Below are positions 8,010 to 52,578 of a stretch of DNA of 54,652 nucleotides, piece after piece. The stretch lies in the NCBI GenBank assembly GCA_021735685.1, contig JAIPGN010000005.1:1-54652 (forward strand), written 5' to 3'. Each line of letters opens with the position of its first letter. The first letter of the stretch is position 1. Below the pieces are notes generated by a model. It had not been told where the DNA came from. It did not search any database and saw nothing but the letters and a program-made list of their open reading frames with translations. The DNA is from Patescibacteria group bacterium. Its GTDB lineage: Bacteria > Patescibacteriota > Patescibacteriia > UBA2591 > UBA6264. Both the position numbers and the translations under genes were made by a program.

Positions 8010-8071
8010 AATTAGGAAAGCATTTCCAAATAACAAGAGTGCATAACTCAAAGGCAATCTCTGCTGGCAGG

Positions 8072-8090
8072 CCTATCTGCCGATAGTCAG
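8072..8090. repeat. Degenerate copy of the CCTGCCTGCCGG(T/C)AGGCAGG palindrome
   Basis: CCTATCTGCCGATAGTCAG matches 15 of 19 aligned positions of the consensus; preceded by a partial CTGCTGGCAGG. Confidence 0.45.
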
Positions 8091-8151
8091 AAAATACCAC
8101 CCTTATGACAATAATCTTTTTTTTATTACAATTTCAAGTGAGTGTAAATGT

Positions 8152-8220
8152 GGGCGCATAGCTCAGGAGTACCTGCCTGCCGGTAGGCAGGCCTGCCTGC
8201 CGGTAGGCAGGGAGCGCCAT
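8152..8220 (+). pseudogene. tRNA 5'-half pseudogene interrupted in the D-loop
   Basis: GGGCGCATAGCTCAGGAGTA^GAGCGCCATC with a 40-nt insert; no T-arm or 3' acceptor strand follows. Confidence 0.7.
8172..8211. repeat. Tandem pair of 20-bp REP-like palindromes
   Basis: CCTGCCTGCCGGTAGGCAGG x2, exact. Confidence 0.9.
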
Positions 8221-8228
8221 CTTAAAAA

Positions 8229-8300
8229 GGGCATGTAGCTCAGAGGTAGAGCACTTGACTTATAATCAAGCGGTCCTGGGTTCGATCCCCAGCATGCCCA
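8229..8300 (+). tRNA. tRNA-Ile (anticodon UAU)
   Basis: GGGCATG/CATGCCC acceptor stem, CTTGA-CT TAT AA-TCAAG anticodon arm, GGTTCGA T-loop, discriminator A, CCA not encoded. Confidence 0.88.
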
Positions 8301-8380
8301 CTCCCTTTCAACAAAAATCACAATGTGGAGGTCAAACCCCCACAACATCCAAGTAAAGAAGAAAAAAATAACACAATAAT

Positions 8381-22191: not shown

Positions 22192-22278
22192 TGGTGGGCA
22201 GGGTAGGATTCGAACCTACGTAGGCATAAAGCCATCAGATTTACAGTCTGATGCGTTTGACCACTCCGCCACCTACCC
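22192..22278 (-). tRNA. tRNA-Tyr (GUA)
   Basis: TCAGA-CT GTA AA-TCTGA, long variable arm, CCA. Confidence 0.95.
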
Positions 22279-22296: not shown

Positions 22297-22371
22297 TGGA
22301 GCCAACGGTCGGACTTGAACCGACGACCTACTCCTTACCATGGAGTTGCTCTACCACTGAGCTACGTTGGC
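22297..22371 (-). tRNA. tRNA-Thr (GGU)
   Basis: GCCAACG acceptor, ACTCC-AT GGT AA-GGAGT, CCA. Confidence 0.95.
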
Positions 22372-22406
22372 CTATCTTTTCACTTGAAAAACAAAAACAA
22401 AATTCA

Positions 22407-22471
22407 CCTTACCATGGAGTTGCTCCCTGCCTGCCGGCAGGCAGGTACCACTGAGCTCTACGTTGGCCTAT
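22407..22471 (-). pseudogene. Duplicate 5' half of tRNA-Thr(GGU) interrupted in the D-loop
   Basis: Copy of 22333-22375 with a 20-bp palindrome at GGTA^GAGC plus a 2-nt CT duplication; ends just past the anticodon loop. Confidence 0.85.
22426..22445. repeat. 20-bp REP-like palindrome
   Basis: CCTGCCTGCCGGCAGGCAGG, perfect inverted repeat. Confidence 0.9.
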
Positions 22472-22761
22472 TTTTTCTTCTTAATCAATTTTATCAAATT
22501 TTTAAGATAAAACAAGATTTCTTTAAAAAACTTTTGACCCAATAAATAAAAAAACCTTATCTTAATAAATAGTTTTTGCTGAAAATGAACCAAATCTCGA
22601 CTAATCTTTCTTTCTAGTAATCTCCTTTTCATTATATTCTCTCTTTCTTGGGGAATTTGGGAAAGATCAAGATGCAGAAGAAGAAAAAATTTACGGCCAA
22701 TAATAAAAATAATTCCCCCCCAGGCCAGAAAAAAAACAACTAAACAAATAAAATAAATCAT
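22468..22761 (-). CDS. Hypothetical membrane protein
   Basis: N-terminal TM; start overlaps the tpiA stop by 4 nt. Confidence 0.55.
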   Translation of the reverse strand: MIYFICLVVFFLAWGGIIFIIGRKFFLLLHLDLSQIPQERENIMKRRLLERKISRDLVHFQQKLFIKIRFFYLLGQKFFKEILFYLKNLIKLIKKKK

Positions 22762-51605: not shown

Positions 51606-51639
51606 TTGACAAAAAAGAATTATGAGTATATACTCATAA
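51606..51639 (+). promoter_or_regulatory. Promoter with an overlapping perfect 20-bp operator palindrome
   Basis: TTGACA, 17 nt, TATACT; TTATGAGTAT/ATACTCATAA (51620-51639) covers the -10. Confidence 0.75.
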
Positions 51640-52340: not shown

Positions 52341-52343
52341 TAT

Positions 52344-52578
52344 TTTTTGAGGGGCCAGACCCCAAAAACCGCTTCCTTGAAACCGAGACAGAGAAAGGGT
52401 TCTGGGAACGATTTTTCAAAAACGTTAATTTTTTAACGCTTTTCTGATTTGCTGAAAAATATTTTGAGGGGCCAGACCCCAAAAACCGCTTCCTTGAAAC
52501 CGAGACAGAGAAAGGGTTCTGGGAACGATTTTTCAAAAACGTTAATTTTCTAACGCTTTTCTGATTTGCTGAAAAATA
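52344..52578 (-). repeat. Two tandem 117-bp copies of the dispersed repeat
   Basis: Units begin at 52349 and 52466 and differ by one substitution as far as I could see; both carry GGGGCCAGACCCC. Confidence 0.9.

Follow-up and report, generated by a model that had tools for sequence, protein, structure and literature searches.

Results

A palindrome-bearing 5′ half of tRNA-Thr lies beside the intact gene

The stretch of DNA analyzed here (54,652 nucleotides of a Patescibacteria group bacterium; the window) carries a tRNA cluster on its minus strand, in which an intact tRNA-Thr(GGT), the working gene (22297-22371; Rfam tRNA, 71.7 bits; hereafter T), is followed by an intact tRNA-Tyr(GTA) (22192-22278; tRNA call and Rfam). 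T is preceded on the same strand by a partial copy, T′, which spans positions −4 to +44 of tRNA-Thr(GGT) and contains a perfect 20-bp palindrome, CCTGCCTGCCGGCAGGCAGG (PAL). Read on the minus strand from 22471 to 22407, this locus (locus 2) consists of ATAG, GCCAACGTAG[AG]CTCAGTGGTA, CCTGCCTGCCGGCAGGCAGG (22445-22426) and GAGCAACTCCATGGTAAGG. The 5′ segment of T′ (22446-22471) comprises the ATAG flank, which contains the stop of a 97-aa ORF, then tRNA-Thr bases 1-20 and a 2-nt AG indel at about 22456-22457; the 3′ segment (22407-22425; repeat D15) covers the region of tRNA-Thr bases 21-44 and ends in the anticodon loop or the first bases of the 3′ anticodon stem. With PAL and the AG indel set aside, T′ matches the tRNA-Thr gene at 44/44 bases and at the 4 preceding bases. 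T starts 35 nt further on, after an A/T-rich spacer (22372-22406, minus strand), the last ~10 nt of which repeat the flank upstream of T′. A preliminary description of this DNA had noted a repeat of the tRNA-Thr segment from the 5′ flank to the anticodon about 35 nt upstream of the gene, and the alignment agrees with it.

PAL occupies 22426-22445, at the D-loop/D-stem junction of T′ (GGTA^GAGC), and its insertion there without target duplication, also described earlier, is evident from the bases on either side. The palindrome is GC-rich against a window GC of 35% and folds into an 8-bp hairpin with a CCGG loop. Searching for the pattern gave three matches in the window (two in tandem at 8172-8211 and one at locus 2), compared with none in 100 shuffles.

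A palindrome next to repeated tRNA sequence could arise as an assembly or sequencing artefact, and De Bruijn unitigs of one run indeed break at the palindrome. Locus 2 was, however, reproduced without differences in Logan contigs of two lake-water runs, and in a second run a single 726-nt contig covers gene, spacer, half-copy and palindrome. The same structure was found in a strain from another study and in an 81% relative, and cultured bacteria with complete genomes show this architecture too. The independent assemblies thus refute an artefact at locus 2, the probability of which is negligible.

The unit is present in some relatives and absent from others

Relatives of locus 2 were fetched through homologues of TIM, and the identities given here are, unless stated otherwise, those of TIM to the window at the nucleotide level. 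The site is filled in the strain of runs X3/X4 (~97% over the aligned region), where the AG indel is missing, so that T′ carries a 2-nt indel polymorphism, and in L204/205 (80.6%), where T′ has equal boundaries, PAL has one change and a 36-nt spacer is 64% like that of the window. It is empty in L210-213 (88.6%), L214 (82.3%) and L206-209 (71-73%); L210-213 are probably the source of the empty allele, which run contigs show by skipping 93 nt. No ORF occurs at the tRNA-Thr site in any relative examined. This presence/absence polymorphism implies that the unit either is old and was precisely lost more than once or was gained repeatedly. Precise loss would be a possible product of recombination between T′ and T. 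A comparison of the window with L204 shows 0 changes in the 44 nt of T′ and 19/20 identical positions in PAL, against 64% identity of the spacer, and such a difference fits constraint or repeated acquisition better than plain decay. Gene conversion by the tRNA gene could account for the conservation of T′, but that of PAL needs another explanation.

The retention of T′ (44/44) and PAL (19/20) between lineages beside a spacer at 64% could also be expected if both formed part of a functional RNA, be it a leader of the tRNA-Thr/Tyr cluster, one half of a split tRNA or an intron-containing tRNA. A 148-nt metatranscriptome contig (run X22, record 5, aligned to window 22420-22457) contains a D-arm with PAL from another organism and weakly hints that such copies are transcribed, with DNA carry-over as a possible source; T′ itself had no clear coverage in metatranscriptome contigs. 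Against a functional RNA, several close relatives retain the tRNA cluster without T′ and PAL, and T′ tolerates the 2-nt indel. Everything 3′ of the anticodon loop is absent from T′, no matching tRNA 3′ half was found, and a complete gene lies adjacent, which is not the structure of a split or intron-containing tRNA. Furthermore, T′ with PAL folds no better than shuffles (z of −0.6 as RNA and −1.1 as DNA), no Rfam family besides tRNA scored above threshold, and the ends of T′ vary widely among the cassettes described below. A functional RNA is therefore very improbable, and the 65 bp at locus 2 most likely have no role today beyond being part of the tRNA-cluster leader.

A separate structure was observed after tRNA-Tyr in the 88.6% relatives (L210:3758-4000; also L211, L212 and L213), where one or two tandem 111-nt units occur, each made of spacer and a tRNA-Tyr 3′ part whose T-loop contains a 39-nt double GC-rich hairpin (CCCGGTCATACGACCGGG + GGGGGGTCGCATGACCCCCC). 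Their copy number varies between samples, and they look like a mirror-type unit without a gene, built on a different palindrome family.

At locus 1 a resident tRNA-Ile was split and replaced

Locus 1 lies on the plus strand. The 5′ half of an ancestral resident tRNA-Ile(TAT), cut in the anticodon loop, occupies 8152-8224 (pieces 8152-8171 and 8212-8224) and is interrupted at AGTA^GAGC by two tandem PAL copies (8172-8191 and 8192-8211; CCTGCCTGCCGGTAGGCAGG), each with one mismatch. It is followed by an intact tRNA-Ile(TAT) at 8229-8301. Independent lake-water contigs reproduced this arrangement as they did that of locus 2. Upstream, at 8038-8110 (repeat D4), lies an older decayed unit, which consists of a tRNA-like 5′ piece, a degenerate PAL-like sequence (8064-8091) and remains of an anticodon arm (CCACCCTTATG), and is separated from the half-copy by a conserved ~43-nt spacer ending at 8151. 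Homologues of this unit are present in relatives L217-L222.

These relatives were fetched through homologues of RuvB, for which the best named matches to the window protein, 65-70% identical, belong to Patescibacteria group bacteria, Kuenenbacteria, Falkowbacteria and Buchananbacteria. The locus-1 half matches the tRNA-Ile of related genomes at 31/33 positions, compared with 24/33 for the adjacent tRNA-Ile, and the intact gene itself, of a different sequence type, is identical to the relatives' gene at 50/73 positions and has another anticodon stem. These comparisons indicate that the resident tRNA-Ile gene was broken within its anticodon loop and that a complete tRNA-Ile(TAT) of another kind took its place. 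The earlier view of locus 1 as a second broken 5′ half upstream of a working tRNA therefore stands as to the arrangement, but the half is no copy of its neighbour. The anticodon TAT (UAU) of the gene at 8229-8301 is unusual for bacteria, and the gene is here a product of horizontal replacement.

In the relatives L220-222 the series begins with a PAL-bearing 5′ half and a 43-nt spacer. A 5′ half lacking PAL comes next, with the same spacer, and then the intact tRNA-Ile(TAT), a further spacer and a 3′ half. The 5′ and 3′ halves meet in the anticodon loop with ~4 nt of overlap, and the PAL-bearing and PAL-free 5′ halves share their boundaries. Since the same half-copy occurs with and without the palindrome, PAL is a separate and later event, and in this lineage the half-copy formed first. 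A single-insertion element with the order PAL, tRNA bases 21-44, cargo and tRNA bases 1-20 would fit the general architecture and was rejected, because it is contradicted by the halves of L220-222 with and without PAL and because the downstream tRNA of locus 1 is wholly foreign.

It had been proposed that PAL hit a working tRNA-Thr and that local duplication of the 5′ half rescued the cell. The identity of T′ and T over 44 nt and their common last bases of upstream flank agree with a local duplication. However, duplicating the 5′ half cannot restore a gene with an interrupted D-arm unless the arm is also replaced, and the proposal fails at locus 1, where the working tRNA-Ile is no duplicate of the broken one. 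Half-copies without PAL also exist, and the duplication is thus independent of a PAL hit. We regard rescue as improbable. A simple tandem duplication was rejected as well, as the sequences after the two copies differ.

PAL is conserved across phyla and mostly lies outside tRNA sequence

PAL was searched for in one genome per species, with R/Y allowed at two central flank positions of the 20-mer. It occurred at at least 120 loci in Bacteroidota, Patescibacteria, Omnitrophota, Planctomycetota, Gammaproteobacteria, Nitrospirota and Chloroflexota, and the hosts among the matches listed include cultured isolates. A crude tRNA profile scored 4/127 PAL-excised flanks as tRNA-like, compared with 7/2,400 controls, and two to three more were recognized by eye. 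PAL is thus enriched at tRNA copies yet mostly lies elsewhere: ~95% of the genome copies are outside tRNA-like sequence and have no nuclease gene of the kind described below within 4 kb, so PAL could also be moved by something else.

Three of the loci, all from CPR genomes, show the arrangement of the window with a tRNA 5′ half, a palindrome and an intact tRNA. In L044 a PAL-bearing 5′ copy of tRNA-Val is separated by a 32-nt spacer from the intact tRNA-Val; in L021 a tRNA-like 5′ piece with PAL lies 30 nt from tRNA-Met; both lack an ORF. The third, L052, contains one and is described in the next section.

The flank bases of 125 solo PAL copies showed no consistent target duplication. The bases next to these copies (L001-L120) are biased (G..G, 25; A..T, 24; C..C, 17), with T on the left (8) and A on the right (9) depleted, which may reflect the insertion site or a longer element. 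A few examples had suggested that PAL inserts at the tips of larger hairpins; this was rejected, since flank complementarity of the 125 copies is no higher than that of controls, except for a tail of ~4%, mostly nested PAL-in-PAL. Word depth over PAL in the window (8165-8206 and 22433-22473; runs X1-X4) is 5-10 times the local depth, with loose ends leading to other flanks, which points to many PAL copies of other organisms in the same lake and aquatic communities.

Two further features of the window are recorded here. A second perfect 20-bp palindrome, A/T-rich (TTATGAGTATATACTCATAA; 51620-51639), occupies a divergent intergenic region ~95 nt upstream of tRNA-Ala(CGC); it may serve as an operator, and its sequence is unrelated to PAL. 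The interval 52342-52575 consists of two 117-nt repeats in tandem with 98% identity.

Small GIY-YIG nuclease genes accompany PAL at tRNA genes

All-against-all clustering of the ORFs around the at least 120 PAL loci singled out small GIY-YIG ORFs. In the complete WWE3 genome L052, a 79-aa ORF (Pfam GIY-YIG, E=7.6e-14) lies between a PAL-bearing tRNA-Lys 5′ copy and the intact tRNA-Lys, with its last base directly preceding the tRNA. PAL is found 20-70 nt upstream of the GIY-YIG ORF in L025, L052, L089 and L093, and a variant PAL in L118. In L089 (3861-4160), PAL and the GIY-YIG domain lie in frame within an ORF resembling type I restriction HsdS, between two target-recognition halves, and no tRNA is involved.

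The nuclease is an ~80-aa protein of the Slx1/YhbQ (UPF0213) type, consisting of the catalytic domain only and lacking a DNA-binding domain. Among solved structures, the UPF0213 proteins BH0048 and EF2693 are closest and SLX1 comes next, with I-TevI matching more weakly. Residues Y5, Y15, R25, H29 and E61 are invariant in the alignment, a pattern compatible with an active GIY-YIG site. The family comprises 6,871 clusters at 50% identity (E<=1e-10) and is named in databases only as "GIY-YIG nuclease family protein" or "endonuclease"; defence-system and NCBIfam libraries gave no match, and PHROGs returned only weak homing-endonuclease matches. Gene callers often extend the ORFs upstream through PAL (giving the peptide PACRQAG) or fuse tandem cassettes (P0121, P0122, P0123 and many entries of 100-130 aa), so that database lengths of the family are inflated.

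By tblastn and HMM searches, no GIY-YIG gene or remnant was detected in the 54.6-kb window, nor was a GIY-YIG gene found at locus 1 or locus 2 in the relatives examined. The best tblastn candidate for a remnant (E=0.012) was rejected, as it falls in an ORF resembling, by eye, an LCP-family protein.

A survey by nuclease homology recovers tRNA-gene cassettes

Metagenome contigs were then scanned with the nuclease alignment alone, ignoring PAL. Confirmation retained 553 of the 600 pattern hits, from which the 80 best loci were taken. Among these 80, an intact tRNA gene lies directly beside the nuclease gene in 68: in 60 a same-strand tRNA starts −40 to +150 nt from the ORF stop, and in 8 an intact tRNA lies just upstream (mirror form). 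Six others are cut by a contig end, and six have no tRNA. The tRNAs are Leu (31), Arg (23), Lys, Phe, Gly, Asn, Met and Ser. An exact PAL is present near the ORF in 46/80 loci, and one with up to 3 mismatches within ~130 nt in 61/80. Inserts that did not pass this filter proved to be variants of PAL, namely a 19-mer, hairpins that have the same arms but are longer, or PAL nested in PAL. Upstream of the ORFs, the 5′ part of the local tRNA is copied, and PAL is exactly the 20-nt gap in its alignment.

The site of PAL was tabulated for 57 cassettes from elsewhere than the window. In 28 it lies where the D-loop passes into the 3′ strand of the D-stem (..TA^GAGC, ..GA^CGCG), and in three more it falls 2 nt within the stem. 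In 9 it is found inside the tRNA-Leu D-loop (GAA^ATTGG), in 8 at the anticodon stem/loop boundary and in 3 at position 9|10, other sites being single cases. The base preceding PAL is nearly always A. The ends of T′ vary widely, the anticodon loop being commonest, with some near the T-arm and some at full length. Both PAL sites of the window (GGTA^GAGC and AGTA^GAGC) and its T′ ends fall in the commonest classes, and the earlier supposition that a tRNA D-loop site is really targeted is thus upheld by 28 of the 57 cassettes, or 31 with the three inside the stem. Some half-copies without PAL (in L178 and L123) have an internal deletion with one end exactly at a usual PAL site (21|22 or 23|24), for which a palindrome-linked deletion is a possible cause.

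Pairwise identity is 0.96 for PAL, compared with 0.57 (nucleotides) and 0.51 (amino acids) for the nuclease ORFs, indicating that PAL is either strongly constrained or continually replenished by a conserved source. Cassettes commonly occur in tandem arrays, as mirror forms or with older units in decay, and the displaced part of the tRNA may be 5′ or 3′. The nuclease ORF often has no stop of its own and continues into the flank or the tRNA, and the tRNA promoter therefore probably drives its transcription. Among cultured bacteria, Croceiramulus getboli has two tandem cassettes before tRNA-Arg(TCG) and Namhaeicola litoreus has one. The loci can be arranged as a decay series, from the full cassette of L052 through the truncated ORF of L112 to the forms without an ORF in L021, L044 and the window. 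A role of PAL as a homology breaker stabilising T′ and T was considered and set aside, being weakened by the frequency of tandem arrays with ~300-nt repeats.

Discussion

Locus 2 as a probable gene-less member of the cassette family

Locus 2 resembles the complete cassettes in several respects. Its palindrome is exact at 22426-22445, and the copies at 8172-8211 have one mismatch each, within the one to three changes allowed for the family; PAL follows an A at a loop/stem junction (GGTA^GAGC) of an incomplete copy of the neighbouring tRNA; and the partial copy ends in or near the anticodon loop beside the intact cognate tRNA on the same strand. The 35-nt spacer takes the position of the GIY-YIG ORF in complete cassettes, but no ~80-aa ORF lies between the partial copy and the tRNA. 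With only a spacer there and zero GIY-YIG matches by tblastn and HMM, locus 2 is at most a derivative without the ORF or a unit made in trans, and the lack of a nuclease gene at either window locus leads to the same choice between decayed cassettes and non-autonomous units. We consider it likely that locus 2 is a member or relic, in gene-less form, of this widespread family of tRNA-gene cassettes with a GIY-YIG nuclease; by analogy with the complete cassettes, a nuclease ORF may once have been present.

The preliminary description had alternatively proposed an att-like scar with an anticodon-loop crossover, hit later. Such a history would have a tyrosine-integrase element once residing in tRNA-Thr and since mostly deleted, with an unrelated REP- or MITE-like palindrome inserted afterwards. 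Partial beside complete tRNA copies are the usual signature of integrated elements (PMC9897764), the T′ breakpoint is in the anticodon loop, and T′ without PAL occurs in a relative. The part of the claim concerning a scar broken in the anticodon loop, with PAL arriving later, agrees with the tRNA-Ile halves with and without PAL, but its att nature does not hold up. Neither locus has an integrase or transposase nearby, and the surrounding genes are housekeeping genes (RuvB, a CtpA-like protease, trigger factor, AlaRS and TIM); there is no island bounded by direct repeats of a tRNA 3′ end, since the 5′ part is duplicated and the copies are merely 35 nt apart; in 68 of the best 80 survey loci the gene lying between the copies or next to them encodes a GIY-YIG nuclease rather than an integrase; and PAL is identical across phyla, whereas REPs are species-specific. 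An integrase scar is accordingly unlikely.

Locus 2 is best read as the scar, or a non-autonomous form, of a cassette driven by a nuclease and later hit by its associated mobile hairpin, the mechanism being inferred. First, an event driven by the nuclease would act on a tRNA gene at its anticodon loop and yield a displaced half-copy and a restored or replaced working gene; put otherwise, the nuclease, or an event triggered by it, would break the tRNA gene, and repair or insertion would displace the half. PAL would then insert after the last A of the D-loop in the now dispensable copy, while hits in working tRNAs would be lethal and hence unseen. The cassette would use the tRNA promoter. Near-invariant beside the nuclease family and also spreading alone, PAL is probably the cognate DNA element of the nuclease. 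The intact tRNA beside each cassette retains the presumed target, which is a misfit with simple homing-endonuclease logic.

A broader proposal can be put forward only tentatively, and we hold it with less than even confidence: PAL and the ~80-aa Slx1/YhbQ-type GIY-YIG nuclease may constitute a new class of mobile DNA, in which the nuclease, minimal and specific for a structure or a site, would move the hairpin into loop/stem junctions and drive the splitting and replacement of tRNA genes at the anticodon loop, with the gene-less units of T′ and PAL being non-autonomous and produced or moved in trans. If so, it would be among the smallest autonomous mobile elements known, common to CPR bacteria, Bacteroidota and other phyla. 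The cassette interpretation, if true, would explain recurrent bacterial tRNA gene fragments that confuse tRNA annotation and a 20-bp sequence conserved across phyla, give a role to thousands of proteins annotated just as "GIY-YIG nuclease family protein", and provide a route of horizontal tRNA gene replacement, as for tRNA-Ile(UAU) at locus 1. It would also offer a minimal nuclease with a defined 20-bp DNA partner, testable in cultured Bacteroidota.

Comparison with known systems

Full-text searches of a limited literature collection, including one for the exact 20-mer, found no description of the cassette, and the combination of a minimal Slx1-type nuclease, a cross-phylum 20-bp palindrome and a partial tRNA duplication occurs in none of the closest known systems; the cassette thus appears to be undescribed. 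REP/BIME elements with RAYT transposases and hairpin elements of the IS200/IS605 type are short GC-rich palindromes with a presumed trans-acting enzyme. Like them, PAL is scattered, inserts without target duplication and forms tandem and nested copies. Unlike them, it is a perfect 20-mer identical across phyla rather than an imperfect species-specific palindrome, prefers loop/stem junctions of tRNA gene copies, and has as its recurrent neighbour a GIY-YIG hydrolase, not an HUH/Y1 transposase. A MITE would have terminal inverted repeats and a target-site duplication, and no duplication is present at GGTA^GAGC.

Dunin-Horkawicz et al. (2006; PMC1564403) described Slx1-like GIY-YIG domains in type I restriction subunits and called the one in HsdR "very recently inserted". 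These domains belong to the same nuclease branch, and the HsdS-like ORF of L089 with PAL and the domain resembles them, but that report mentions neither a palindrome nor a tRNA association. Tyrosine-integrase elements target tRNA genes (PMC9897764, citing Williams 2002 and Reiter 1989). As in the cassettes, one complete and one partial tRNA copy form direct repeats, and the anticodon loop is a frequent crossover site. The cassettes differ in having no integrase, an insert of 0.03-0.3 kb rather than kilobases, usually a duplicated 5′ part, and common tandem arrays.

Free-standing GIY-YIG homing endonuclease genes are known from the seg and mob genes of phage T4, for example, SegB in a tRNA gene cluster. 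With these the cassettes share a small selfish nuclease gene beside a conserved gene, presence/absence polymorphism between strains and, at locus 1, a sequence-variant target copy accompanying the event. Unlike them, the cassette protein is an ~80-aa Slx1/YhbQ catalytic domain lacking a DNA-binding domain, and the cassettes are chromosomal, occur in many phyla, and include a partial target duplication and a conserved 20-bp palindrome. A mobile ORF in the mitochondrial atp6 of Allomyces, reportedly described by Paquin, Laforest and Lang in 1994, is said to bring a replacement gene end and to displace the resident one. That case concerns an organellar protein-coding gene, displaces the 3′ end and involves no palindrome, whereas the cassettes lie at tRNA genes and displace the 5′ or the 3′ part; in both, the insertion would restore the target with its own copy and leave the displaced resident piece as a pseudogene, which matches locus 1.
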